Assembly (NCBI GenBank): GCA_963719635.1
Contig: CAVRCS010000004.1
Span: forward strand, 557,908-621,907
Direction: 5' to 3'
DNA from: an uncultured Thermoplasmata archaeon
GTDB taxonomy: Archaea; Thermoplasmatota; Thermoplasmata; Lutacidiplasmatales; UBA184
DNA length: 64,000 nucleotides
The position numbers and the translations under genes are program-made. Position 1 is the stretch's first letter; each line of letters opens with the position of its first letter. Under the pieces are notes generated by a model, which saw only the letters and a program-made list of their open reading frames with translations, was not told where the DNA came from and made no database searches. Shown one piece after another: positions 8,950 to 52,285 of this stretch.

Positions 8950-11569
8950 CTAGCTCAGCTCCAGGGCGACGCTCCCGTTGCGGTTGAGCACCGCGACCGT
9001 GCCGTGCGAGGGGGTGATCGTCCCGTGGCCGTGGATCACGGCGTCGGTGTAGGCGTAGCTGCCGGGGACTTCGTAGAACGTGAGCGAGCTGCCCGACGTC
9101 GTTTCGGTGACGCCGTTGACGGTCACCGACCACTGGACGCCGCCGCCGTGGCTCAGCGAGAACGTCACCGTGTAAGCGGTGATGGGCAACGGGAACGCGT
9201 CGCCGCCGGTGGCGATGTAGCCGTACTCGTCGTACGGCAGCGGGCTGCCCGGAACATAGTCGCCCCAGGAGTTTCCGCCCTGCCAGGACGATGGGACTAT
9301 CGTCCCGGTGAGGGCGAAGCCGTCGACGGTGTTCACGTACGAGCGCGGCTCGACCATCGGGAGGTTCCAGCTCTCCGCGTTCGTCTGCCCGAACCCGTAG
9401 AAGAAGTTCTCATCCGGGACGAAGGCGGTGATCGAGGTGTCGACCTTGTTGTTGTAGATCAAATCGCCGCTCTCGAACGCGAAGAGGGCGATCGGGGGGC
9501 CGTTCGCCCCGCCGCTCCCCGGGTACATCGTCGGGCTGAGGACCGTGCTGTTGACGAACGTGTTCCCCCAGACGACATTCCCCGTGGGCGCGGACGGCTC
9601 GAGACCCGCGAGCAGCAGCGAGCTGCCCTGGCTGACGAACGTGCTGTCGCCGATGAGGTCGTTCGTGCCGCCCCACACGACGACGTTCGACAGAGGGAGG
9701 AGTCCAGTCGGACCGTAATCCTGGAAGAAGAACCAGCCGGTGATGCCGCGCGCGCCCCAGATCGCCACGTTGGAGGCGTTGAACAGTTCGAACTGCAGGT
9801 TGTTCGTCGTCGGGAGGCCGTTCGCCAGGTTCCGCGCCGCCTCGTCGCTCGCGTAGGTGAACCCAAGCAGCGTCGGGTTCTGTAGCGTCACGTGCGCCGT
9901 CGTCCCGGCGAGAAGCACGCCGGCGAAGACCGGGAAGAAGTAGTCGTTGTACTCGTCGAACGCCGAGTTGATCCCTCCCTTTGCAGGGTTGTTGTCGAGC
10001 AAGTACGGGTGCGACGCCGTGCCGAACCCGCCGGAGGAGATCGCCGCCAGCTGGCCGTTGTTCCACGCGTCCAGCGGGGTGTAGACCCCTTCGGACGGGT
10101 TGTGAGCGAGGACGAGGTGCAGGGTCACGGTCGAGCCGGCGTGGACGGTGACGGTCGTCTGGACCGGCGTGTAGTCGCTGAGCATCGCGTCGATCGTGTA
10201 CGTCCCCGGCGGCATCAGGTAGTGGACGCTGGAGGCGGTCTGGGTCGGCGCCCACGCCGCGGTGTTCGGGTTGAACGCGGTGCCGGGCGTGAAGAATACG
10301 AACGCGTTGGACGGCGACAGCGCCCCCGAGAACGTCGCGTGGCCGAGGTTGCCCCCCGGCGTCGCGTTCCAGAGCGGGGCCGGGATCGAGGGACCTGCGC
10401 TGAGCGCGACGGTACCGGGGACCGAGTACGTCTCGGCGATCCCCTCGGAGCTCTCCCCGGTGTCGGTGCCGACGTTCCAGGCAGACGGGGGGTTGACGTA
10501 CCCGGCCCAGCCCGGCGTTCCAGTACCTGGAGCTTCTCCGAGCCGCTGAGCCCGTAGATCGACGTCGTGGTGCCGCCGCCCGGCCCGCCGATCATGATCT
10601 CGGCGTCGTAGAGCAGGAAGCCGGTCGGCGTCACCTGGGAGCCGTCCACGAGGAACGGCGACGCGGGGACGGAGCCGATCGGGGTGGTGGAGTTGAACAG
10701 GACGGTGTCGTAGACGCCGGCCGCCTCACTGTGGCCCGTCGCGGCGTTCACCACATCGAAGCCGAACCGGATCGTGGTGTAGCCGTAGCCGGTGCTGACC
10801 AGGTTGGTGGTGCTGGAGTTGAGGAAGAGGTGGACGGTCACCGGGAGCGACACCGGATCGTCGGGCCGAAGTCGTAGTAGAACTCGGGGTACACCGGTGT
10901 GCCGTTGCCGGAGTAGATCGTCCCCTGGGCGAGGGAAGTGGCCGGCGAGGAGAAGTTCCAGACGTTGTCGAGGAACGTGATCGAGCCAGGAACGAGGTTC
11001 CAGTAGAAGACGTTCTGCGTCCAGAACGAATCGACGGCGCTGTCGCCGACGGTCGTATTATTGGTGACAGCGTTGAGCTGGACCCCGAACGTGTTGTTCG
11101 ACCCGGTGGTCGACAGCGCCCCGTCGTTGTCCATCCAGAACGAGTTGACGCTGTTGATGGTGATCGTCCCCTCCCAGCTTGAGCTGCGGAGAGTGTACGG
11201 GACGGGCGTGCCGGTCGTGTTGGAGACGCCCCACGTCCCGATCCCCATCGGCGCTGGGGCGATCGGGGTGAGCGGGGAGACGACCCCGTTCGAGACCTTC
11301 TCCTGCGCGAGGAGGTTGGGGAGCGAGACCGCGGCGCGGGGGATGTGATCGGACTGGGTGAGCGCGAGGATCTGCTGCTCCTCCGCCGACCGCGCGGAGA
11401 GCGACGGTGCGCGAGCGAGCGAGGCGGCGGCGTCCGACGACCCGCTGTGGCCCGCGTGCACGGCCTCTCCGACGAGGCCGCCGACGCGGGGACCGAGCAG
11501 TCCGACGCCCAACGAAAGTACGGTCAGCGCGGCGATCGCGACAGCCAAAACTATGGCGCGGCTCGACAT
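8950..11569 (-). pseudogene. Thermopsin-family surface protein paralog, interrupted by two frame changes
   Basis: Three consecutive minus-strand ORFs in three different frames (10838..11569, 10215..10853 and 8950..10215 with an open extension up to ~10540). Together they are collinear with the intact paralog 1158..4910 (APAPMGIGTWGV, FGVQLNAV, FWTQNVFYWN, FLDNVWNF, FYYDFGPT | LLYDAEIMIGGPGGG | PSAWNVGTDTGE). The total span of 2620 nt is not a multiple of 3. Confidence 0.7.
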
Positions 11570-24706: not shown

Positions 24707-26096
24707 CTACGAAGCGGGCGACGCAGGCCCCACCACCGCGAGGACGTCCTTCACGGCCCGGATCCCCCGGTCGGCGAGGGCGCGGGCGTCCCCCGCGGTC
24801 TTCCCCTCCGCCGAGACGCGGAAGATCGCCTCCGTCCCGGACGGCCGCAGCAACAGCCAGCCGCGGTCGGTGTACAGTTTCACGCCGTCGAGCGTCTCGA
24901 GCCGCTCCCCCTCGCGGGTGAACCGCGCGGCCAGCTGGGTGAGGACCGCAGCCCGCTGCGCAACGGGGCAGGCGACCGTCTCTTTCACCAGAGGGTACGC
25001 CGGGACGTCCCGGAGGAGCTCCGCCAAGGTCGTCTCCGTGCGGGCCAGCAGGTCCAACGTCGCCGCGAGGCTCATCGCCCCATCGCGCGCGAGCTGGAAC
25101 GCCGGGAAGACGATGCCCCCGTTGTCCTCCCCGCCGAGGACCGCGCCGTGCTCCCGCATCGCCCGGACGATCGACGGCGAGCCGACCTTGGTGTAGACGA
25201 CCCGGCCCCCCGCCGGGGCGATCGCGTCCTCGACGGCCCGGGAGGTGGAGACCGGGACGACCACCATCCCGCCGTGCGCGCGTTCGACCGCGTCGCGAGC
25301 GAGCGCGGCGAGCATCGTTTCACCCGGGACGAACGAACCGTCTGCCCTGACGAAGACGGCGCGGTCCGCGTCGCCGTCGTGGGCGACGCCCAGCTCCGCG
25401 CCGACGGCCGGCACGAGCCGCCGCAGGTCGGCGACGTTCTGCTCCGTCGGCTCCGACCGGTGTCCTGGGAACGTGCCGTCGATATGGCCGTTGAGGGTGA
25501 CGGTCCGGCATCCGAGACGGTGGAGCAGCCGCGGGCTCGTCGGGACGGAGGCGCCGTTCCCGCAGTCGAGGGCGAGGTGGAACCGGCGGGCGGCGATCCG
25601 CGGGCGGTCCACGCGTTCGAGGATCCCTCGGAGGTACCGCTCGGCGCCGAGGGCGTCGTGGTCGATTTCCGCGACCTGGGAGTACGGGACCGGCGCCGCG
25701 GCGGCCGCGTCGTACGCCCCCTCGATCTTCGCCTCGACCTCGGGCGGTGCCTCGAGACCGTCCGCGGCGATGCACTTGAAGCCGTTGAACTCGGGCGGAT
25801 TGTGCGAGGCGGTGACGATGACGGCGAACCCGGCGCCGACGCGCGGGACGCTGTACCTGGATCGCGGGGGTCGGCAGCAGCCCCAGCTCCAGGACGCGGT
25901 GCCCGCTCATCGCCAGGGTCGACCCGACGATCCGGGCGAGCGCGACGCTCGAGGTCCGGCCGTCCCACCCGACGGCGACCGGCCGGTCCCGGGGCGCCAC
26001 CGTGGCGATCGCGTTGGCGATCCGCGTCGCGAACACGGGGGTGAGCGTCTCACCGACGACCTCCCGGATGCCGTTCGTGCCGAACAGTCCGGTCAC
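24707..26096 (-). CDS. Archaeal phosphohexomutase (phosphoglucosamine/phosphomannomutase family); frame-disrupted near 25858
   Basis: N-terminal GLFGTNGIRE in ORF 25320..26096. The phosphoserine loop TASHNPPEFNGFK, metal loop AHDGDADR and GGEDNGG lie in the frame of ORF 24707..25612. Confidence 0.85.
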
Positions 26097-30718: not shown

Positions 30719-30907
30719 TCAGACGTACGTCGACAACGCGACGATGACGACCGCGCCGATCGCGACGTACAGCATCAGCCGGTACGTCCGGGCGGAGCTC
30801 AGGCGGCGCTGGCGCTCGGACGCGCACGCCGCGCTGCACGTCTCGGCGTCCGGCTTCGTGACCCGTCCGCAGACCTTGCAGTGCCGGTGCTCCGCGTCGC
30901 TCGGCAT
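30719..30907 (-). CDS. DUF2116-like zinc-ribbon protein with C-terminal TM helix
   Basis: CKVCG...CSAAC four-Cys ribbon followed by LMLYVAIGAVVIVALSTYV. Confidence 0.6.
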   Translation of the reverse strand: MPSDAEHRHCKVCGRVTKPDAETCSAACASERQRRLSSARTYRLMLYVAIGAVVIVALSTYV

Positions 30908-30946: not shown

Positions 30947-33900
30947 TTATGAGGTCGGCCGCCGGGGCCGGCGGGGCCTCGCCAGCCGCCCTTGCGGGCC
31001 CGGCGGCGGGGCTCCTTGGAAGACGTCTCGGCGGAGAGCTCCGGGTCCATCGGATTCGGCGGGTCGGCCGCGAACGGCGAGTCGTCCGGCGACGGCTCGC
31101 TGCCGGCGACGAACGGAGCCGGGGGGGCCGCGAGCGCCGCGAGATCCGATGGGAGCCGGCGGTCGCCGGCGTCGGGAACGCGCCGCCCTCGGGTGAGTAC
31201 CTGGCGGAGGAGGTTGAGCCAGATCCGCCCGTGGCTCTGGACGCTCGTCTCCAGCCGGTCGCGCAGGTCGGCGGTCTGTTCCTCCAGTGCCCGTTCGACG
31301 CGGTGCAGCTCTTCGAGCAGTTCCTTGCGGACCGCCAGCAGGCGGGCCTCCGACGGCTTCGCCTGGACGTTCGCCTCGTGCTCGCTCAGCTTGAGCCACG
31401 TCTGCCGGACGATCGGCAGCACGTGGTCGTTGATCACCATGACCCGCCGGTCGAGGTCCTCCAGCTCTTCGCGGAGCTTCGTCTCCATCCCAACGAGGTC
31501 GCCTTCCCGCACGGCGATCTGCTTTTCCAGCTCGGCGATCCGCCCGAGGGCGAGGTCGCTCTCGGTCCGGAACCGTCCTTCGGACTCTTCGAGGGTGCGG
31601 GCGAGCTCGGCCCGCTGTACCTCGACCGCCCCGTCGACCTCGTGGCCGACCCGCTCGCTCAGGCGGTTGTCGAAGTCGGCCGAGCCGATCGTGGCGCCGA
31701 TCGTCTCTTCGAGGTCGGCCTTCAGGCGCGCCAGGAGCTCGACGTACTTCTCCTGCTCCGCCTGCTGGGTCTCGCGGACCATCTGCTCGACGAACGACTG
31801 CATGCGGACCTGCAGGCCCGCGACCGCCGCCCGCTGCGCTTCGTTCGCTTCCGCGATCCGCGCGTCCCGCTCGAGGTTGAGCCGCCGCTCGACGTGCGCG
31901 ACCCGGTCGTCGGCCGCCCCGGAGAGCCGCTGCGCCTCGTTCGACAGGGTCGCCGCCAGGTGCTCTTCGACGTCCTTCGTCCGCCCGTCGACGAGCAGCC
32001 CGATCCGCTGCTCGAGGTCCCGGGCGTCCCGGTTCCGCTTCTGCTCTCCTTCGGCGAGGCGGGTGTCGAGGATCTCACGGACCCGCGCCTCGACCTCCTC
32101 GCGGAGCGCGTTCGCCTGCTCCTTGGACTCCAGCAGTTCCAGGTCGAGCTGGGCGACCAGCGCGGCACGGAGGTCCTCCTCCGACTTCGCCGCCCGGGCG
32201 CCGAGCTCCTCGGAAGCGTCCTTGATGTCGCGCCGGAACCGCTCGGCCCACCCTTCGGCGGTGGAACGGATCCCCTCCGAGACCCGGCTCTCGATCTCCC
32301 CGAGCTTCGGGTCGACGCGGGCGGCGATCTGCGCCTGGATCTCGGGTCCTAGGGCCGCCGCGGTGACGCTCGGCTGGCGCTCGAGGGCGGCCAGGCGGGC
32401 GCCGAGCTCGGTCCGGACGGTGTCGGCGGACTTCGTCGCCGCCTCGGCGGCCTCACGGAGGCGCGCGTCGAGCATCGCCGTCCAGCGCCGCTCCAGGTCC
32501 CGGGTTGCGAGCGAGAGGCGGGCATCCAGCAGGCCGCGGTCGGCGGTGCTCGGAACGACCGGGCCGAGCCGGTCCGCCGGGCGGACGCCGGCCGTCCCCG
32601 CGGCCTCCGCCGGCGGGGGGCGGGCGAGCGAGGAAAGGAGCGGAGGGGCCGGGGCCCGCGCGGGCGCCGTGGCGGCCGGCGCAGCGGCGCGGATCGACGG
32701 GTCGTCGGACGTGGAGACCGGGACCTTCCCGGGGGAATCCATCGGCACGGCGATCTGCGCCGGCCCGCGGAGCCACTGCGGCACACCGGCCGGTGCCGCC
32801 GGGGGCGCGGACGCCGCGGGCACGGGGGCAGGCGCCGCCGAGGTCCCGGCCGGCGGCGCGGCCGGGGCGGCCTGCTTCGGAGGGACCGGGACGGGCGGGG
32901 GAGGGGTGGGAGGACCTGCTCGCCGTCGGGGCCGGCGCGGGGGCGGCGGCAGCGACCGTCGGGGATGCGGCGGCCGCCGGAGCGGCCTCGACCGCGGCGG
33001 CGGAAAGGACCGGGCTCTCCCCCGGCCGCGCCTCGAGGGTACTCGTTCGCCCGCTTCGCCGTGTCGCCGGAGACCGAGACGGTGCGGCCCCGGGGCCGGG
33101 CGAGCAGGAGCGCGGCGGTCTCCATCGCCGTGCCGACCCGCCACATCTCCTTGCGCCGCTCGCGGCCGGTCGGCGCCTCCGCCGCCGAGAGCGCCTCGGT
33201 GAGGCGCGGTCCCTCGACCTGGTCGACGCGCCGGACGACCTCGGCGGCCTTCTCGTCCGCGTGGTCGCGGACGTACCTGGAGCACGAGCGGGAGGCTCTC
33301 CTTCGTCTTCGTGGAGGGAGGGCGCGTCAAGTCGCGGAGCGACACCGGCTGGCCTTGCCAGCTCTGCATGCGCTTGACGTGCCGCTCCCCCTCGGCCTCC
33401 TGCCGGGCTGACCCGCATCACGGCGAGCGCGAGCGGCAGCTGCTCGGTGAACTCGCGGATGTTCACCTTCGGCGCGGGCAGGAAGTACGGAAAGACGAGG
33501 AAGCTGCCGAGGGCGACCAGCGCCGCCGGCATCGCGCCGACGAGGGCCTGGACCGCCTGGCTGACCGAGTCCCACTGGTCGGCCGTCGCGACGGCGACGA
33601 CCGGTTCGGTGGTCCCGCGGTGGAAGAGGAACCCTTCGCCGACCGCCTGGAACGTAGCGGCGTCCGGCTCGGCGCGCGAGCGGCGCGCCTCCTCCCGGCC
33701 GGCCATCATCGCGTGGGCGCGGAGGACGGAGCCGCCGAACGCGCCGGTCTGCACAAGCTCCTCGGTCGCGAAGACGAGCGTCTTCATCCCGAGGCGTGGG
33801 CGGTCCTCGGTGGAGAGGAACATCCGGCCGACGCACGTGTAGCGGCCGCCGGCGGCCGGGTACAGGAAGAGGTTCGGGTAGAACGAGAGCGTCTGGCTCG

Positions 33901-34111
33901 GGTCCGGGTCCCAGTAATCCTGCGTGTCGGCGACGTTGATCGTCAGGTTGCCGACGAGGCGGATCGCCTCCAGCGCCTCCTGCCGGCCCGGGAACTCGTC
34001 CGGGATCGCCGTGTAGCCGGGGCTCTCGGCCTCGTTATCGACCTGCCGACACCAGACCGAGGCGATCGGCGCGACCGGGCGGAGGGACGCCAGCCCGCCG
34101 GCGCTCATCAC
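30947..34111 (-). CDS. ~1,050-aa protein of unknown function: novel N-terminal globular domain, Pro/Ala linker and ~550-aa coiled coil; at least four frame changes in this sequence
   Basis: The start (GTG 34111 or ATG 34108) overlaps the GTPase stop. The N-terminal ~240 aa lie in the frame of ORF 32453..34660 (SVWCRQVDNEAESPGYTAIPDEF...FLVFPYFLPAPKVNIREFTEQLPLALAV). Plausible coding then switches frames near 33407, 33275, 33040 and 32915. The coiled-coil body lies in the frame of ORF 30799..33369. The 3' end is uncertain. The track frame runs over the DUF2116 gene, while a TAA at 30947 in another frame is the likelier stop. Confidence 0.55.
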
Positions 34112-35274
34112 GACCCCTTCGTCGCGCGGCGGGCGAGGACCCGTTCGCACGCCCGAGCGAGCGGGAGCGTCGTGTTGACCATCACCGGGACCCCCAGCGT
34201 CGGCGTCCCGACCTCGGGCGCCTGCTCGCCCCCCTCGCCGAGGAACATCGGGTGGCCCTCGCCGGTGGAGACGGCGCTGGAGACGAGGAAGACGTCCTCG
34301 CGCGTGGAGATGCCGCGGCCTTCCTGTGCGACGAGGATCGTCCCCATGCCGGCGCCGTCCCGGCGGAGGAGGAAGTCGGCCGTGTCGAACTGGCTGCGGT
34401 AGCTCCGCTCCTTGATCGACCGCTCGATCTCGGCGTAGAACTCCTTGAGCCGGTCCGCCTTCGACACGGCGATGACGAGCGGCAGGTTGTGGGCCTTCAC
34501 ATACCGGAAGACCCCGCGGGCGAGGTTCACCTGCTGCGCCTGGTCGCGCAGCGAGGCGAGGGAGGGGGAGAGGAGGAGGATGAGCGCGTCCGCCCCGTCC
34601 ACGAAGCGGCCGAGCAGGGTGAGTCCGCGCCGCCAGAGCTCCTGGCGGTCCGGTCGCCACGAGTCGAAGTGCGGGATCACGCGGCAGCTCCGGTCGGTGA
34701 CCTCCGCGTCCGCGCTGCTCAGCCAGAGCCGGTCGTAGGTGAAGTAGTCGGCGATGATCCCGCCGGCCTCGTCGACCGTCTGCAGCTCCATGGGGCGCGA
34801 GCCGCCCGGGGTGTCCGCGGTGCCGAAGCGGAAGCGCATCCGCATCTCGACGAACTGGTTGAACTTCGTCGGAAGCGGGTACTTCGTCAGGATCCCCTGG
34901 TCCTCGCGGCCCGCGCTCAGCTCGACCCAGAGCTTCTTGCGGTCCTCCAGGGGGCGGTTGACGTAGTAGCGGGTCGTCGTCTCGAGGCTCCCCTCGGGGT
35001 CGGTCGGGTCGGCCGTCTCGTACGTCGTCTCCTCGAGCGCGACGTCGCTCTCCAAGTCGCCGAAGATCGGCAGGCTCCAGCCGTTCTCGGGGGTCGGGAT
35101 GTACGTGATCGGCAGGTTGAGGCCAAAGTGCCCGGAGAGGAACCGGAAGTACGTCGTCTTCCCCGACGCCGGGATCCCGACGACCGCGATCCGCGCCGAC
35201 TCCTCGGACGGCTTGGTCTCCCGCTTCGCCCCGGGGGCGCGCCGGCCCCGGGTCGTGACCTTCACTTCCGCCAC
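34108..35274 (-). CDS. Atypical P-loop GTPase (TRAFAC-like) with large insertion between G1 and G3
   Basis: G1 VVGIPASGKTT, G3 TVDEAGG, G4 AVSKAD and G5-like VSSAVSTG. About 130 aa separate G1 from G3. GTG start lies 12 nt after the vWA gene stop. Confidence 0.7.
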   Translation of the reverse strand: MAEVKVTTRGRRAPGAKRETKPSEESARIAVVGIPASGKTTYFRFLSGHFGLNLPITYIPTPENGWSLPIFGDLESDVALEETTYETADPTDPEGSLETTTRYYVNRPLEDRKKLWVELSAGREDQGILTKYPLPTKFNQFVEMRMRFRFGTADTPGGSRPMELQTVDEAGGIIADYFTYDRLWLSSADAEVTDRSCRVIPHFDSWRPDRQELWRRGLTLLGRFVDGADALILLLSPSLASLRDQAQQVNLARGVFRYVKAHNLPLVIAVSKADRLKEFYAEIERSIKERSYRSQFDTADFLLRRDGAGMGTILVAQEGRGISTREDVFLVSSAVSTGEGHPMFLGEGGEQAPEVGTPTLGVPVMVNTTLPLARACERVLARRATKGS

Positions 35275-35286
35275 GGGGTCACTCCG

Positions 35287-36824
35287 CTAACGCATCTCCG
35301 CGAGGCATATCTCAACGAAGTCAAGCGTCCCGTCCACGACCGGGCCGGTCCCGGCGAGCTCGAGGCGGGTATCCTGCAGCCGGCCGAACACCACCTCGAC
35401 CGCGGCCTCGTGCTTGAGCGCGGCGTCCTGGAGGTCGCCGGCGCCGGCGAGCCGGGTGAGCTGGTACGTCCCCCGCAGGTCCATCAGGTCGCCGAGGAGC
35501 CGTTGCAGCCGTTCGCGGATCGCGGGCCGGGTCCCCTCCAGCCGCTGCTCTGCGTCGTCGAGGAACCGGACCAGCGTCTCGGTTTCCTTGTCGTTCTGGA
35601 GCTTCGCCTGCAGCAGCGCGAGCCGGCGGACGACCTGACCCCGACTCTCGTCCGGGAGCTTCTCCGCCTCCGTCCACGCGCTCAGCAGCGCCTTCGCGGA
35701 CTCCTCCGGCTTGTTCTGCGCGAACCGGATCCTCGCCTCCCAGTAGAACCGGGTGACGGGAGGGAGGAGCGGGGCCGAGCGGGCGAGGAGCCCGGCGGCC
35801 TGGTCGTACTGCCCCGCGAGGTACGTCTCGACGACCTCGCCGATGGGGCCGTACCGGTCCTTGAGGTAGGCGGGGGTGCCGGCGACCGTCGGAAGGATCC
35901 CGACCTCGACCGACGGGGCGACGAGTGAGCTGGACGGCGACGGCGCCGCGACCGGTCCGACCTTCAGGCGCGTGACCGTCTCGTGCGCGCCCGGGTCCTT
36001 CAGCGCCTTCGCAGAGTCGGAGGCGGTCTTGGCGAGCTCCTCGGGGTGCAGCTCGTCCAGCGACGGTCGTTCGTCGCCGTAGCCGACGTCCAGGAACGCC
36101 TGCACCATCTTGGCGAACAGCGCGGAGCCGGTCGTCACCTCCTGGAACGTGAAGACGCCGGTCCCGCCGATCTCGGCGGAGCGCTGGCGCAGCCGGTCGA
36201 GGACGCCGTTCATCTGGCCGGCGTCCGCGCCCTTGTCGCGCTCGGAGCCGCTGCCGATCCCGAGGATGCGGACGCTGAGCTGCGAGTTCGGGGGAAGGAG
36301 GTGCGGGACGAGGTCGGCCCTCGCCTTCGGACCGGAACCCGGCTCCCCGACGCTCGCCGTGTACTTGGTCGAGGCGTTGTCCCAGCCATCGGTGACGAGC
36401 ACGAGGTTGCCCTGCACGCCGTTCTCGCCGGTGCGGAGCAGCTCCGCGCCCGTGGCGAGCGCGTCCCACACGGCGGACCGGCCGCTCGGCGTCAGCAGCG
36501 AGATCAGGTTCTCGATGAACGGAAGGTGGTCGCGCTGGATCATGCCGAGCGGGACGGGGACCCGGACCGTCTCGGTGAACGTCACGAGGCCGAACGGGGT
36601 CCCGCTCTTCGCCGCGTCCTTGAGGATCCGATAGACGGCGGTCCGCGCGACCTCGATCTTCTGCCGCTCGCGTGACGTCCCTTCCGGCTCGGGCAGGGGA
36701 GCCATCATGCTCTTGGAGAGGTCGAGGAGCAGGACGTTCCGTTCCCGGAGGTCCGGACCGCCGGCGGCGTCGCCGCTACTTCGGCCTGCACGCTAGGAGT
36801 CCCCGGCTCTGCGCCGACGCCCAC
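35287..36824 (-). CDS. von Willebrand factor A (vWA) domain protein with C-terminal TPR-like helical domain; 5' end frame-disrupted or non-canonical
   Basis: The frame of ORF 35287..36708 continues upstream through RNVLLLDLSKSM (MIDAS DxSxS), but no ATG/GTG/TTG occurs before the in-frame TAG at 36793. A GTG at 36824 in another frame would join near 36745. Downstream vWA elements are FGLVTFTE, SGRSAVWDAL and LVLVTDGWDN. Confidence 0.65.
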
Positions 36825-36914
36825 GCGACCCTAGCTCCGGGCGCCCGCCGGCGCCGGCCCGCCAGAGAGCATGGTCGGTCAGACCGAGAGCTGGGTATTT
36901 GTGGCTTCCGTCCG

Positions 36915-37487
36915 TCACCCCGTGAAAGCGGCGGCGTACACGCGGGCTCCGGGCGGAAACCGGAGCCTGCCGCTGCCCTCCACCGTCTTGCCGGAGACGG
37001 CGAGCCCGGCCGCGCGCGCCGCGGCCAGCGCCCCGTCGAACGCCTCCCGGGTCAGCGGGACGTCCTGGACGACCGGCTCGGTCAGTCGGAGCATCCACAC
37101 CGACGGCGCGGTCCGGACGTCGAGCGTCGGCGGGCACTCCGACAGGTCGACGAGCCGGAACCACGCCGGCGCGCGAGACCAGGCGAGCACCGTCCGTCGT
37201 CCGTCGGAGGAGGAGACCTGCACCCCGTCGCCGTCGACGGAGAACGACACCGGGACACCCCGCCGCGCGGTCCACGCCGCGCTCCCAAAGCCCACGGCGG
37301 CGAACCCGAGGAGCAGAGCCCCGACAACGACGTCGACCGTCCGTCCGGCGGACGGTCCCGCGTGGGTCTCCAAGGAGAGGGAGACGAGCCCTCCGAGGAG
37401 CAGCACCGCGCTGAGGCCACAGAGCACCCCGAGGGAGCGGCGGCGCGCGCGACGCGCGGCGGGGACGAAGGAGGATAGGTCGAACAA
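36915..37487 (-). CDS. Membrane protein (two N-terminal TM helices plus a small beta-rich cytoplasmic domain)
   Basis: TTG start. Hydrophobic segments LGVLCGLSAVLLLGGLVSLSL and VVVGALLLGFAAVGFGSAAW. Co-directional with the vWA gene, ~90-120 nt upstream of it. Confidence 0.5.
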   Translation of the reverse strand: MFDLSSFVPAARRARRRSLGVLCGLSAVLLLGGLVSLSLETHAGPSAGRTVDVVVGALLLGFAAVGFGSAAWTARRGVPVSFSVDGDGVQVSSSDGRRTVLAWSRAPAWFRLVDLSECPPTLDVRTAPSVWMLRLTEPVVQDVPLTREAFDGALAAARAAGLAVSGKTVEGSGRLRFPPGARVYAAAFTG

Positions 37488-37563
37488 GCGGTGCTCCCAG
37501 CCTAGGGCAGGCCGGCGTCCGCCAGCGCCACCGGCGGCCGCTCCCCGAAGGAGACAACAACGG

Positions 37564-37570
37564 TTATGAA
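37564..37570 (+). promoter_or_regulatory. TATA-like element (TTATGAA) 24 nt upstream of the rps17e ATG
   Basis: The only AT patch in the 37488..37594 intergenic region. Confidence 0.35.
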
Positions 37571-37594
37571 CGGTCGGCCGTCCCCCGCGCGCAC

Positions 37595-41913: not shown

Positions 41914-44253
41914 TGCCCGCGGGTCCTTCGGCCGCAACCCCCGCCGAGCCGCTCCACCTTCTCGGGAAACGCATCCCGTACATCGAGGGCCCGCTCAAGG
42001 TGACGGGCCGGGCCGAGTACACGGACGACATCCGTCGCCCGGGCCAGTTGGTCGGGCGGCTGCTCCGCAGCCCGTGGCCGCACGCCCGGATCGTCTCCGT
42101 CGATCTCCGCGAAGCCCGCGCGATGCCGGGGGTCGCGGCGGTCCTGACCGGCGAAAAGTACCCGACCCCGTTCGGCGTCCTGCCGATCACCCACGACGAG
42201 ACCGCGATCGCGGTCGGCAAGACCCGCTACATCGGCGACATCGTCGCGGCCGTGGCGGCGTCGGACGAGCGGACGGCCGAGCTCGCGCTCGAGAAGGTCC
42301 GCTTCGAGGTCGAGCCACTCCCCGAGTACCCGGACCCGGAGGGCGGGATCCGACCGGTCCCCGAGCCGATCCACGCCCGCGGCCTCGCGGGCTCGAACAT
42401 CCAGAAGGAGGTCGTCCAGCATTTCGGCGACGTCGACGCCGCGTTCGCCGCGGCGGCCCACAAGGTCCGCGTGCGCGGGACGTTCGCCGGCGTCACCCAT
42501 GCGTTCACCGAGCCGCTCGTCACGCTCGCGGAAGCGACCCCGGACGGCCGCCTCACCGTCTGGAGCGCGACCCAGGTCCCCCATTACCTCCACCGGGCGC
42601 TCTCCGAGGTCCTCGGCCTGCCGATGCACCGGATCCGGGTCATCAAGCCAGAGGTCGGCGGGGGGTTCGGCGGGAAGTCGGACCCGCTGCCGCACGAGAT
42701 CGCCTGCGCCGCGCTGGCGCTCGAGACCGGCCGTCCGGTGAAGATGCTCCTCGACCGGGAGGACGTCTTCTACACGAACCACGGCCGCCACCCGACGCGC
42801 AACGACGTGCGCATCGCGGCGGACGCCGAGGGGCGTCTCCTCGCCTACGACATCGAAGCGCTCATCGACGGCGGCGCGTGGAGCTCGTTCGGCACCGTCA
42901 CGACGTACTACAACGGCGTGCTGGCGATGGGGCCGTACCGGGTCCCGAACTTCCGCTACAAGGGACGCCGGGTGTACACGACCAAGCCGCCGAGCGGTGC
43001 GATGCGCGCGCACGGCGGCACGAACATCCGCTACTCGGTGGAGGTCGCCCTCGACCAGCTCGCCGAGGAGCTGCGCATCGACCCGTTCGACCTGAGGCGC
43101 CGCAACGCCCTGCCGCCGAACTCGACGACCGTCAACGAGTTCCGCATCACGTCGACGTCGTTCCTGAAGTGCCTGGACACTGCGCAGCGCTCGAGCGGTT
43201 GGGAGCAGAAGTTCCGCCAGCTCCCGTACGGCCGCGGCGTCGGGCTCGGCTGCGGGTTCTACATCTCCGGCTCGAACAGCCCGATCCACTTCACCCCCAA
43301 GATGCCGCAGTCGACGGTCCACCTGAAAGCGGACATGGACGGCGGCATCGCCGTGCACTCGATGCAGGCCGACATCGGCCAGGGGTCGAACACGCTCCTC
43401 GCCGCGATCGTCGCCGAGGTGCTCGACATCGAACTGGCGCGCGTGCACGTCCAGCGCGTCGACTCGGATGTGAGCCCGGTCGACCTCGGCTCGTACTCCA
43501 GCCGCGTGACGTTCATGATGGGGAACGCGGCGCGCTCCGCCGCCCTCCAGCTGCGCGCGAAGATCGTCGACGCCGCTGCCACGCTCCTCCATGTCGCCCC
43601 GGTGGAGGTGGAGCTCGCGCACGAGCGGCTGAACGTCCGCGGCCGAGCCGGAGACGGCGGTGACGTTCGACGCCGCCCTCCACGAGGCGATCGCCGTCCC
43701 CGGAGCCCTCGCGGTCAGCGGCTCGTACCAGACGTCGCCGCGCGGCGGGACGTTCAAAGGGGCCCGCGCGGGGACGGCGCCGGCGTACACTTTCGGCGCG
43801 TACGTCGCCGAGGTCGACGTCGACGTCGAGACCGGCGTGTACTCGGTCGAGAAGGTCTGGGCGGCGTTCGACTGCGGCCGCGCGCTGAACCGGCTCGCGG
43901 TCGAGGGCCAGATCGAAGGGTCGATCCACATGGGGCTCGGCCAGGTGATGGGCGAGTCGATGAACTACCGCGGTTCCCGGTTGCTCAACCCGTCGCTGCT
44001 CGAGTACAAGATCCCGGCCCCGCAGCAGATGCCGGACGTCGAGGTGCTGCTCGTCGGCGACGACGACCCGGACGGCCCGTTCGGGGCGAAGGAGGCCGGC
44101 GAGGGGCCGCTGATCGCGACGCTGCCGGCCGTCGCGAACGCGCTCTACGACGCGATCGGCTGCCGGTTCACGGAGCTGCCTATCACCCCGGACCGCGTCG
44201 TCCGCGCGCTCGAGGAACGCCAGAAGGAGGGCCGCCCCTGGAAGGGGGCGTAG
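41913..44253 (+). CDS. Molybdenum hydroxylase large (molybdopterin-binding) subunit, xanthine dehydrogenase/CoxL family; frame-disrupted near 43645
   Basis: The N-terminal 575 aa lie in the frame of ORF 41580..44471 (EVGGGFGGKSD, ADIGQGSNT). The C-terminal part is ORF 43660..44253 (GAKEAGEGPL). The 2341-nt span is not a multiple of 3. No AYxCSFR CODH signature was seen. Confidence 0.85.
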
Positions 44254-48715: not shown

Positions 48716-50008
48716 TCAGTCCCGGTGCCGCGAGCGCTGGCGTCGTGCGGGGCTCTGGGGGTTCGGCAGAACGCTCGCTCTCTCGTCGTCGCCCAGGTCC
48801 GGCGGAACGTACGCAGAGGCGATGGCGATCCGGGTCGGGCGCGGCGCCTGCGGGCCGGATCCGTCGGCGAGCGCATCCGGTCCGGGGGACCGGGGCGTGT
48901 CCGCCCCCTCGTCGGGAACCGGGTCGAGCGGCGGAACGATCGGCAGCGGGCCGCGCGAGGGGATCTGTCGGTTCGCGCCCGGACCGCTGGCGAGAGGGCG
49001 GGCCCCGACCGCCGGCGGCCGGGAGATCGGCAGCTCGGGGGCCTCCTCTTCCTCGACGTCCTCCTCCTCGGGCTCCTCCTCCGAGGCCTCCGCCTCTTCG
49101 CCGGAGTCGGCCGTCGGCTCCTCCTCGTCCGTCGGCTCCGGCCCGCTGGCGAGCGCTGGCCCCGCCGCAGCGAGCCGCTTCTCCTTCGTGAGCCGGTCGA
49201 CCTCCGCCCAGAGGGCCTCGACCTCCTCCTCCGGCGACGCGTAGCGGCGGTCCTCGCTCAGCGCCTGGCGCACCTGCGAGATCAGCCGGACGGCATCGGT
49301 GGCCCCGTGGGCGCGGGTCTTGATCCGGTGGAGGCGGCGGGCGAGGTTGCGGGCCTCGCTCAGGATCTCGTCCTCGTCGGCCGCGGACATCGCCGCGACC
49401 GCCGGGGCGCGCGGGATCCGCGCGACGGTCTTGCGCGCCGCCACGAGCCGCTCGGCGCTCGCGCCGAGCGCCGGGTCCTGCAGCGAGCGGATCAGGTGCG
49501 AGAAGGCGGCGACCGATTCCCGGACGTCCTCGCCACGGTCGCGCGCCCGTCGGATCGACAGCCCGAGCGCCTGGGCCTCGTGCGCGAGGAACTTCGGGAG
49601 CGCATCGTTGAGCACCGCGAGGGCGAACGACGCGCCGGCCGCCGCCTTCTCGAGCGAGGCGGGCGTCAACGACTCGCCGAGCAGTTGCGCGCGGGGGTTG
49701 CCGACCCGGGCATCGATCCGGGCCAGGTCGAGGCCCACGGTGTCGGCGACCCCGCGCAGCCCGTCGACCCGCTGCAGGAGTTCCCGCAGCCAACCCCAGT
49801 CCTGGTCGGCCCGCGCGAGGAGCGTCTCCGCGCGCTTGACGAGCATTTCCGCGCGGTCGACCTCGCCCGCGCGCGTCGCCTGGTCCAGCTCGTTCTCGAG
49901 CTGGGCGGTGGGGATCGGCAGCCCCTCGACCTGGTACTTGCCGGCCCGGTCGACCACCGCTGCAAGGCGGCGACGCAGATCCGGGAACGGGGACGGCTTG
50001 CGGGGCAT
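48716..50008 (-). CDS. Hypothetical helical protein with acidic (Glu-rich) stretch and Pro-rich disordered tail
   Basis: 430-aa ORF starting 3 nt after the upstream stop. The first ~290 aa have helical heptad-like composition, followed by [28 protein letters not shown]. No family recognised. Confidence 0.5.
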
Positions 50009-51777: not shown

Positions 51778-51933
51778 CGTGCTCCCTTCCATCGCCGACG
51801 GCCCTCCCGGTAGCATCGCGGCAACATATCGAAGCTGTCGAGCCAAGAGGGGGCGGCGGACGGAACCGACCAGAGCCACCGGCGTCGTGGCCCCCCCGTC
51901 GATCCACGTCGGGTACGCCCAGCTCGGCCGGGA

Positions 51934-52020
51934 CGCTGAGGGGGAGATTTGAACTCCCGATGGTCTTTCGACCAACCAGATCTCGAATCTGGCGCCTTGG
52001 CCGAGCTAGGCTACCTCAGC
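51934..52020 (-). tRNA. tRNA-Ser (anticodon CGA)
   Basis: Hand-folded cloverleaf. Acceptor GCTGAGG/CCTCAGC, D arm GCCT/AGGC, anticodon stem CCAGA/TCTGG with loop TTCGAGA, 17-nt variable arm (class II), T arm GGGAG-TTCAAAT-CTCCC, discriminator G. No encoded CCA. Confidence 0.9.
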
Positions 52021-52285
52021 ACCCGGACCCCGGGGGAAGTTCTCGGCACATAGCCGTTTCGCGACAGACCCGCGGCGCGCTCCCGTGCCGAGCGCCGATG
52101 CGATTATCGTTTCGGCGGCCGGCACTCGCTCGACGAGGAGCCGCGGGTAGCCTGTGCGGCAAAGCGCCGCGACGCCCGGCGAGGGATGACCCGCCGGCAC
52201 GCCCCTTCTGTCACGCCGAGGACGAATGTGACAGACTCTCCGCCGCGTGCCCCCGCGGCCCCGGGCCGACCCCGCGGTGGAGGCC

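Follow-up and report, generated by a model that had tools for sequence, protein, structure and literature searches.

A conserved three-gene GTPase operon of soil and peat Thermoplasmata with a tentatively DENN-like partner protein

GTPases paired with regulators of the longin or DENN type are central to eukaryotic membrane traffic, and to our knowledge such pairs have so far been traced only to Asgard archaea. The Asgard case is an operon that encodes a LAMTOR1-like Roadblock protein, a small GTPase that is Rab-like, and a DENN protein (bioRxiv 10.1101/2020.10.19.343400), so that archaea offer a precedent for a GTPase-DENN operon, albeit one limited to the Asgard lineage. Here we describe a 64,000-nt stretch of DNA with ~72% GC (hereafter ‘the window’) from an uncultured Thermoplasmata archaeon (assembly GCA_963719635.1, contig CAVRCS010000004.1), which carries genes for a von Willebrand factor A (vWA) protein, a GTPase and a large partner protein. 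These three genes form a real, genuinely linked and uncharacterised operon that is restricted to a Thermoplasmata clade from soil and peat. We tentatively read the locus as a lineage-specific, vertically inherited GTPase switch with a DENN-like regulator on a helical tether and a vWA adaptor, an interpretation that we consider plausible though short of probable.

Several described systems resemble parts of this locus. The DENN module consists of a longin sandwich, a three-layer alpha/beta domain and an all-helical domain (PMC3521125). DENN proteins that serve as GTPase-activating proteins (GAPs) are defined by a conserved longin patch and by an arginine finger located between beta4 and beta5 (bioRxiv 10.64898/2026.01.05.697756), and a GP/WD catalytic-pocket motif follows strand 1 in the longin GAPs C9orf72, SMCR8, FLCN and NPRL2 (PMC12290439). 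A structure of the C9orf72 complex with ARF1 captures the arginine finger in action (PMC8213707). DO-GTPases carry a conserved Glu in Walker B, and the gene immediately downstream encodes GAP1, a protein of three globular domains; vWA proteins and coiled-coil fusions occur in GAP1-N2 neighbourhoods, and such systems are present in a few archaea (PMC7159879). MoxR-vWA ternary systems combine an NTPase, a vWA protein and a third component (PMC7159879).

As in the Asgard operon, an archaeal GTPase is paired here with a DENN-type protein as its predicted cognate regulator. However, the DENN likeness in our case is seen in predicted structure only, with no Pfam DENN or longin match, and the GTPase is a 388-residue orphan that is not Rab-, Rag- or Arf-like. 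In addition, Roadblock is replaced by a vWA protein with a metal ion-dependent adhesion site (MIDAS), the regulator continues into a Pro/Ala linker and a long helical rod, and the host belongs to the Thermoplasmatota. We tentatively file the locus as a variant of the theme of a GTPase with a longin/DENN regulator, set apart by its orphan GTPase, the MIDAS adaptor and a tether built into the regulator. A similar pair in Thermoplasmatota would mean that this regulatory logic is older than thought, or that it has arisen twice.

Linkage, distribution and conservation of the operon

The operon is characterised by a fixed gene order, strict co-occurrence, invariant motifs, strong conservation and a lack of membership in known families. 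Our collection comprises 168 loci, with 88 found via the GTPase (L001-L088) and 80 found via the partner head in Joint Genome Institute metagenomes. Distribution was established by DNA-level locus scans; word-indexed homologue searches missed the partner forms of ~1,000 residues, and those conducted with the partner gave only 30 and 16 proteins, most of them truncated. In the GTPase-seeded set, the partner gene lies directly downstream of the GTPase gene in 88/88 loci and the vWA gene lies upstream in 87/88. The partner-seeded loci carry the GTPase gene directly upstream in 61/61 cases and the vWA gene in 48/48. The three genes are thus always neighbours, except for vWA in one locus, and the recurrence of this gene set in 168 independent loci places the linkage far beyond chance.

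The genes are also tightly packed. Only 12 nt separate the vWA stop codon from the GTPase start codon in the window, and the GTPase TGA and partner ATG have one base in common within the sequence GTGATGA. Among the 88 GTPase-seeded loci, the gap between the vWA and GTPase genes is mostly 8-19 nt, and the GTPase-partner junction measures -9 to +10 nt in 76/88. The G+C content at third codon positions (GC3) is 0.94-0.97 in the called frames of the window genes.

The host lineage is abundant in soils and peat, and many of the homologues came from the SPRUCE and Microflora Danica sites. More than 120 GTPase homologues are listed (383-393 residues, 78-91% identity), and those with a named source are all assigned to ‘Thermoplasmata archaeon’. 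A scan of GTDB species representatives recovered 153 genomes. Among the 80 genomes listed, nearly all are Thermoplasmata metagenome-assembled genomes from soil and peat, each with one locus; one carries the name Candidatus Lutacidiplasmatales, and another has no label beyond ‘bacterium’. Published Lutacidiplasmatales genomes have ~69% GC (PMC9287336), which matches the window.

Judged by sequence identity, the GTPase is conserved at the level of core genes, comparable to ribosomal proteins. Relative to locus L001, which holds the nearest relative of the GTPase, identities are 94% for L39e, 91% for the GTPase, 89% for L31e, 88% for S17e, 83% for both S19e and the partner head, 80% for eIF6, 78% for the vWA protein and 64% for the rod of the partner. 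Median identities across the 88 loci are 82% for S17e, 79.5% for the GTPase and 72.5% for the partner head. In the window and in 71/88 loci, the operon adjoins the genes for S17e, eIF6, L31e, L39e and S19e, and at least 71/88 loci share one chromosomal position, with syntenic housekeeping genes as neighbours.

This neighbourhood, together with an analogy to the MIDAS protein Midasin and the GTPase Nog1, could indicate that the operon encodes a ribosome-biogenesis or translation-linked GTPase module. In Foldseek searches with the GTPase model, a chain of a pre-60S particle comes first, and a Nog1-associated particle appears at rank 23. However, the pre-60S matches are of a generic G-domain kind (E ~1e-3, TM-score ~0.3), and S17e is divergently transcribed. 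Moreover, a distant clade (GC 59-65%, GTPase 58-61% identical, partner of only 555-559 residues) is without ribosomal neighbours, yet keeps the triad and the downstream block in the order vWA-GTPase-partner-DUF2116-CTP_transf_like-hyp73-M50 peptidase, with different genes upstream. We consider a link to ribosomes very unlikely.

The first-pass annotation of the window, which a model made from sequence alone, had left room for a conflict system, and the combination of an NTPase, a vWA protein and a large third protein does recall the MoxR-vWA ternary systems (PMC7159879). On this reading, the operon would be an NTPase-vWA-third-component system that is active against viruses or in some other conflict. 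As in MoxR-vWA pairs, an NTPase gene adjoins a MIDAS vWA gene, suggesting NTP-driven remodelling with a vWA adaptor. However, the P-loop protein is of the GTPase type and not an AAA+ MoxR (searches for such a match gave only generic sub-cut-off P-loop matches, as with AAA_18 at 16.9 bits versus 29.4), the vWA gene comes first, and the third partner is obligatory and regulator-like. PADLOC-DB 2.0 gave no match for five proteins at E values up to 0.1, and effector domains, be they nuclease, protease, pore or other, are absent. Conservation of the GTPase at the level of ribosomal proteins, a fixed chromosomal position and a single locus in each of the genomes listed likewise fit poorly with a conflict system, which we regard as the most improbable of the explanations weighed here. 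A cell-structural role is more likely than defence because of the core-gene conservation, the fixed synteny and the absence of effectors.

The three proteins and a possible switch mechanism

The GTPase is classified from its sequence as a divergent TRAFAC-type enzyme with intact G1-G5 motifs, in line with the first-pass annotation, and every motif quoted there (DLSKS of the vWA protein; GIPASGKT, DEAGG and SKAD of the GTPase) is present at confirmed coordinates. The G1, G3/Walker B, G4 (SKAD) and G5-like (SSAV) motifs occur in order, and conservation across loci is nearly complete for GIPASGKTT (146/148) and complete for DEAGG (153/153) and SKAD (152/152). In DEAGG, a Glu follows the Asp, and the motif is not followed by a Gln. 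The protein is expanded to 388 residues by a large beta-rich insert between G1 and G3 and by another insert between G3 and G4. Its AlphaFold2 (AF2) model keeps the order of strands and helices of a G domain, and Foldseek matches this model to Nog1-containing pre-60S, Rho/Rac and kinesin structures at E values of ~1e-3 to 1e-2, with TM-scores of 0.2-0.5 for the pre-60S GTPase chains and Rho/Rac. Two points weigh against this assignment: SKAD is an unusual G4 in which Ser replaces Asn/Thr, and the class rests mainly on motifs because the confidence of the model is low, with a predicted local distance difference test score (pLDDT) of 54.5.

Comparisons with Pfam and NCBIfam GTPase-family models gave only partial matches below the cut-offs, and PDB sequence searches with single sequences and three profiles, covering the GTPase and the partner, returned nothing significant. 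An exhaustive HMMER profile search with the GTPase against 1.84 billion representatives yielded 16 matches. Because these comprise one other full-length cluster and otherwise mostly fragments, the GTPase family is an orphan at the level of sequence, with no bridge to a known GTPase family. Profile searches place the three proteins in no characterised system, as only the VWA models and, for the downstream neighbour, the DUF2116 model match. The first-pass remark that no archaeal system of this composition is known holds, with Pfam, NCBIfam, PADLOC and PDB sequence searches empty for the GTPase and the partner.

To model the head of the partner, AF2 was applied to P0143, a complete short-form homologue that is 40% identical, with a 29-sequence alignment. 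The model has a pLDDT of 74.5 overall and of 80-94 over most of the head. Its longin-like part includes a strand (residues 11-18), a helix (39-55), three strands (71-81, 87-96 and 102-111) and a second helix (112-132). This is followed by an alpha/beta part built of beta-alpha units (146-254), a helical unit (268-328), a disordered Pro/Ala linker after residue 328 and long helices (400-554). The predicted order of longin-like, alpha/beta and helical parts corresponds to that of the DENN module. A domain that the first-pass annotation had left unassigned is now predicted to be longin/DENN-like, so the logic of the module would be that of a GTPase with its cognate regulator.

Three motifs of the partner are invariant or nearly so among the 168 loci. 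The first, WCRQVDNEAESP (consensus WCRQVD[NH]EAESP), covers strand 1 and the following loop and is found in 167/168 loci, whereas DTQDYWDP (consensus DTxDYWDP) and STEDRPRLG (consensus GRMFLSTEDRPR[LI]G) are each found in 168/168. Nearly all invariant residues of the partner fall within the longin-like part. Arg103 and Arg105 of the third motif are located in the beta4-beta5 loop of the model, between the strands 87-96 and 102-111, and they would occupy the arginine-finger site of DENN GAPs if the longin assignment is right.

These features resemble eukaryotic longin-DENN GAPs such as C9orf72-SMCR8, FLCN-FNIP and Avl9/DENND6 in four respects: the predicted domain order, the longin part as the most conserved surface, the invariant arginines of the beta4-beta5 loop, the position held by the arginine finger of the Avl9 type, and a second invariant patch after strand 1, which is the site of GP/WD motifs. 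However, there is no detectable sequence homology, the motif after strand 1 is ESP(G) rather than GP, and the GTPase is unrelated in sequence to Arf, Rab and Rag. GAP activity is a prediction in our case, and the eukaryotic complexes contain nothing equivalent to the rod and the vWA partner.

The best Foldseek match of the partner head in the PDB is 7mge_C from the C9orf72:SMCR8:WDR41:ARF1 complex (E 2.9e-4, probability 0.84). Several observations weigh against a DENN-like assignment, beginning with the poor superposition on this chain (TM-scores 0.15/0.21, root-mean-square deviation 18.7). Chain C of 7MGE may be C9orf72, SMCR8 or the WDR41 propeller, and both C9orf72 and SMCR8 are in the entry. 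Among lower matches, the Lokiarchaeota Roadblock-Longin and Lst4 longin domains are non-significant, with E values of 0.7-1.5. None of 29 partner members matches a DENN-clan or longin Pfam family at E values up to 10, PDB profile searches were empty, and hhalign of the partner profile against human C9orf72 gave a probability of 0.3% over 10 columns. Indeed, no sequence or profile method ties the head to DENN, longin, TagF or GAP1. The DENN-like assignment, which depends on one AF2 model and one Foldseek match, is tentative.

The second-best structural match of the head is TagF (PDB 9t0n; E 0.05, 393 aligned columns), an accessory protein of type VI secretion systems. The two share no sequence similarity, and no genes for such a secretion system occur at this locus. 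A literature search found no paper with both ‘TagF’ and ‘DENN’ as whole words. We know of no GTPase partner of TagF.

Alternatively, the pair could descend from the DO-GTPase-GAP1 class of NTP-dependent conflict systems, having diverged very far and become fixed (‘domesticated’). Both have a TRAFAC-type GTPase with a Walker-B Glu, invariant here in DEAGG, and a three-domain partner gene directly downstream, which overlaps or abuts the GTPase stop codon in most loci; vWA and coiled-coil proteins accompany some versions of the class. Weak Pfam DO-GTPase2 matches are seen in 8/23 family members (best E 0.012), but these matches span only the 14-residue P-loop and reach 12.5 bits against a cut-off of 27. 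The GAP1-N, GAP1-M and GAP1-C models give no match in 29 partner sequences at E values up to 10, and PADLOC gives none either. No effector, FNIII, GASH or EAD components are found in the inspected loci. Unlike DO-GTPase-GAP1 systems, this locus is non-mobile, single-copy and free of paralogues and variable modules, and it is held in strict synteny with housekeeping genes. Such a descent is, in our view, unlikely.

Beyond the head, the Pro/Ala linker carries a conserved VPQWLRGP...VPVSTSDDPS motif, and the equivalent segment of P0143 has an AF2 pLDDT below 50. The rod that follows is rich in E, A, L and R and terminates with the conserved sequences VLPIVRQTWLK and SHGRIWLNLL, whose family forms are VLPxVRQTWLK and GRIWL. 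Its length is ~150 residues in the short clade and ~450-650 residues in the main clade, with the ends conserved. An uninterrupted coiled coil of ~550 residues had been proposed for this region. The region is indeed helix-rich, but it measures ~445 residues, contains five prolines and has a hydrophobic period of 3.65-3.75 rather than 3.5, both globally and in 84-residue windows. Power at the heptad period of 3.5 does not exceed that of shuffled sequences (p 0.20), which counts against a classical coiled coil, and p is 0.026 at 3.67, which gives weak support. The observed period can be called hendecad-like; periods of ~3.65-3.75 are typical of surface-bound amphipathic helices or of right-handed coiled coils.

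The tail has a conserved acidic motif, PFAADPPNPMDPEL (consensus PFAxDPPNPMDPEL in long forms), and a basic end, KEPRRRARKGG. The motif PFAADPPNPMDPEL is a candidate ligand of the MIDAS. It lies in the disordered tail, is conserved in the aligned main-clade loci L001 and L004 and is absent from the short clade.

Loci of the short-partner clade encode an extra protein of 339-416 residues just upstream of the vWA gene (L005 and L006, 3909-4928; L007, 3546-4796; L089, 909-1925). This protein has a conserved N-terminal domain of ~95 residues, a Pro/Ala linker and a C-terminal helical region, and the copies of L007 and L006 are 30% identical overall (E 3e-40). It was not found in the window or in any main-clade locus, and it may supply the rod length that the short partner is without.

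A long rod also invites the possibility that the GTPase is a polymerising or membrane-remodelling machine of the septin, dynamin or kinesin kind, with the large protein as a structural filament or rod partner. The expanded G domain with its large inserts, the kinesin motor domains among the Foldseek matches, the conserved DUF2116 zinc-ribbon/transmembrane neighbour and an amphipathic period of ~3.7 residues, which is compatible with surface-bound or right-handed helical assemblies, are all in keeping with such a machine. However, Pfam and NCBIfam scans reveal no dynamin, septin or kinesin family matches, and the kinesin matches have probabilities of only 0.2-0.7 and TM-scores of ~0.15-0.2. In addition, the invariant residues cluster on the partner's longin-like surface, a pattern more in keeping with a regulator interface than with a filament lattice. 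We consider this machine improbable.

The vWA protein matches Pfam VWA_2 (38.7 bits, cut-off 27) and VWA (32.5 bits, cut-off 23.8), as do four homologues. All three MIDAS elements, DLSKS, TPSGRS and VLVTDG, are present in the window copy. A DxSxS motif is found in 68/78 extracted homologues and [VL]LVTDG in 74/78; the 10 scored as lacking DxSxS include proteins whose N-termini were over-extended by the start-codon rule, which can put the motif beyond the 80 residues searched. An invariant LDF[IV]E[IV]CLAEMR sequence closes the C-terminal half, which is helical. Tetratricopeptide-like repeats had been suggested for this tail, and no hidden Markov model detects them.

The arrangement of the locus suggests how the favoured GTPase switch with a DENN-like regulator might operate. 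A single promoter in the spacer between the S17e and vWA genes would drive vWA, GTPase and partner. Because the GTPase and partner genes overlap (TGATG), these two proteins may be translationally coupled and are probably made together and act as a complex. The GTPase would serve as the switch, and its intrinsic hydrolysis is probably slow because no glutamine follows DxxG. The first ~330 residues of the partner (the head) are predicted to dock on the switch regions of the GTPase. By analogy with DENN GAPs, the modelled Arg103/Arg105 loop might act as an arginine finger and the partner as a GAP, the alternative being a guanine nucleotide exchange factor (GEF). Classical DENN modules are GEFs, which counts against the GAP assignment.

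With the linker, the rod of variable length and the conserved C-terminal motifs, the partner would act as a long tether or scaffold that engages according to nucleotide state. From its motif, the vWA MIDAS would be expected to bind an acidic ligand motif in a metal-dependent manner, while the helical C-terminal half may recruit another component or target. We infer complex formation, GAP chemistry, the role of the tether and the cellular process that is served. The compact three-protein locus is a tractable target, with Arg103/Arg105 and the MIDAS aspartate providing a clear mutational prediction.

A bolder proposal is that a non-Asgard lineage, these Lutacidiplasmatales-like Thermoplasmata, runs a eukaryote-style small-GTPase circuit, in which a dedicated GTPase is controlled by a genuine longin-DENN GAP that forms part of a long, golgin-like tether, with a MIDAS adaptor coupling the pair to a target. 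We regard this as possible but rather doubtful. If true, the DENN-type fold and the arginine-finger mechanism would be older and more widespread than the Asgard-eukaryote lineage, and these archaea would rely on the circuit for a cell-biological process that is essential, for example the organisation of the membrane or envelope, or division.

Frame breaks in the window

In the window, the reading frames of the vWA and partner genes are both interrupted, and the two carry at least seven indels and one lost stop codon. DNA alignment to L001 locates a 1-nt deletion in the vWA gene between the GTG start (36824) and the MIDAS motif, and the first in-frame start codon comes only after DLSKS. The intact MIDAS reported earlier is thus complete in its elements, but the frame that should contain it is broken before DLSKS. 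The partner is spread across three frames. By the same alignment, it has 1-nt insertions near 33406-33410, at 33276, at 33038 (the boundary of the head and the Pro/Ala linker) and at ~31200, as well as a 2-nt insertion near 31122, and there is at least one more frame change in the Pro/Ala region near 32900. TGG occupies positions 30982-30984 in the window, where relatives carry the partner stop codon TAG. Past this lost stop, the frame continues for 61 codons to a stop at 30799-30801 and crosses the DUF2116 gene; position 30947, given earlier as the end of the operon, corresponds to a TAA in a different frame.

Relatives provide the repaired frames. In L001-L004, the vWA protein has 502-511 residues, with a GTG start equivalent to window position 36824, and the partner is a single open reading frame (ORF) of 1022-1061 residues. 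Across the 71 loci with a locatable stop, the partner is one ORF of 934-1205 residues in 65 and of ~558-560 residues in four. The protein of ~1,050 residues described by the first-pass annotation is therefore borne out as a single ORF in relatives, although it is split over three frames in the window.

One explanation for these breaks is that the vWA and partner genes are real pseudogenes and that the system is decaying in this genome. Break density is high in the partner gene, with at least seven frame disruptions and the lost stop within 3.1 kb, and the vWA gene has one more, whereas only two are found in ~17 kb of flanking genes compared with L001. However, +1 insertions of the same type interrupt unrelated housekeeping genes of the window, namely those for phosphoglucomutase (at 25853) and a molybdenum cofactor dehydrogenase subunit (at 43643-43648), and a large ORF, which we take to be thermopsin-like although no family scan was made, is also frame-broken near 10520. 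A frame break coincides with 4/6 GTACCTGG sites in the window, versus a background of 7%. The shifted segments still match intact homologues at 77-83% identity and have no internal stops. Finally, the window lies within an 809,592-nt contig, and long-read assembly is a candidate explanation for both that size and the indels. Decay of the operon in this genome thus seems quite unlikely to us.

We read the frame breaks as systematic assembly errors because unrelated window genes are broken likewise, often at GTACCTGG. This sequence includes CCTGG and GTAC, and methylation-linked base-calling error is therefore a possible cause of the insertions. Motif-associated frameshifts in this assembly can conceal long genes from annotation. 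The frame-breaking GTACCTGG sites are at 10523, 25853, 31197 and 33273 (plus strand), and further breaks are at 33037 and 43643-43648.

Features of the locus and its neighbours

Table 1. Coordinates of the operon, its motifs and adjoining features in the window
Feature	Coordinates	Strand	Description or basis
S17e-vWA divergent spacer	36825-37594		
Window-specific insertion (~585 nt)	36973-37558		relative to L001
ORF190, 190 residues	36915-37487	-	two hydrophobic segments
Gene for vWA protein, putative MIDAS adaptor	35287-36824	-	GTG start at 36824; Pfam; alignment to L001
MIDAS residues of vWA protein	36385-36723	-	DLSKS 36709-36723, TPSGRS 36475-36492, VLVTDG 36385-36402
GTPase gene, 388 residues	34108-35274	-	intact in window
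GTPase G1, GIPASGKT	35155-35178	-	
GTPase G3/Walker B, DEAGG	34759-34773	-	
GTPase G4, SKAD	34453-34464	-	
GTPase G5-like, SSAV	34270-34281	-	
Partner start codon, ATG	34108-34106	-	
Partner residues ~1-135, predicted longin-like subdomain	33704-34108	-	AF2 model of homologue P0143
Partner motif 1, WCRQVDNEAESP	34019-34054	-	
Partner motif 2, DTQDYWDP	33905-33928	-	
Partner motif 3, STEDRPRLG	33788-33814	-	
Partner residues ~136-350, predicted alpha/beta (DENN-core-like) then helical (d-DENN-like) subdomains	33039-33703	-	AF2
Pro/Ala-rich linker, probably disordered	32536-33037	-	three-frame translation; alignment to L001, L004
Linker motif, VPQWLRGP...VPVSTSDDPS	32761-32784	-	
Helical rod, ~445 residues	31201-32535	-	composition; AF2 of short form; long/short alignment
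Partner C-terminal tail	30982-31200	-	DNA alignment to L001
Acidic tail motif, PFAADPPNPMDPEL	31036-31077	-	
Basic end, KEPRRRARKGG	to 30985	-	
DUF2116 zinc-ribbon protein, C-terminal transmembrane helix	30719-30907	-	Pfam DUF2116, E 2.3e-11

The operon had first been described as four packed, co-directional genes, with a protein of two transmembrane segments as the most upstream component. The three-gene minus-strand core, including the 12-nt gap and the TGA/ATG overlap, is retained, but the fourth gene (ORF190) is not. ORF190 is coding-like (GC3 0.91), and its only cluster mate among 15 billion proteins is a 59-residue fragment. It is not part of the system, because it lies within an insertion specific to the window and has a homologue in 0/168 related loci. 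No convincing target-site duplications were found around this insertion.

The divergent spacer between S17e and vWA is a hot spot for insertions. Its length is usually 209-440 nt and reaches 0.8-3.5 kb in seven of the loci L001-L088, and the inserts (e.g. in L010 and L050) are unrelated to one another at the DNA level.

On the other side of the operon, Pfam confirms the DUF2116 protein that had been noted downstream. Its gene lies within 23-105 nt of the partner stop in 51/60 loci with a match, including the distant clade. The DUF2116 protein is thus a conserved immediate downstream neighbour and a possible membrane anchor, and its membership in the system is unproven.

A tblastn match of the partner at 50539-48839 raised a rod paralogue at 48.8-50.5 kb as a candidate, which was rejected since the match reflects low-complexity Pro/Ala and helical composition only. 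At 48716-50008 on the minus strand lies an ORF of 430 residues with a strong coding signature (GC3 0.92), whose N-terminal half is helical and whose tail is acidic and rich in Pro. A single RNA gene was detected across the 64-kb window, that for tRNA-Ser (CGA), located at 51931-52021 on the minus strand.

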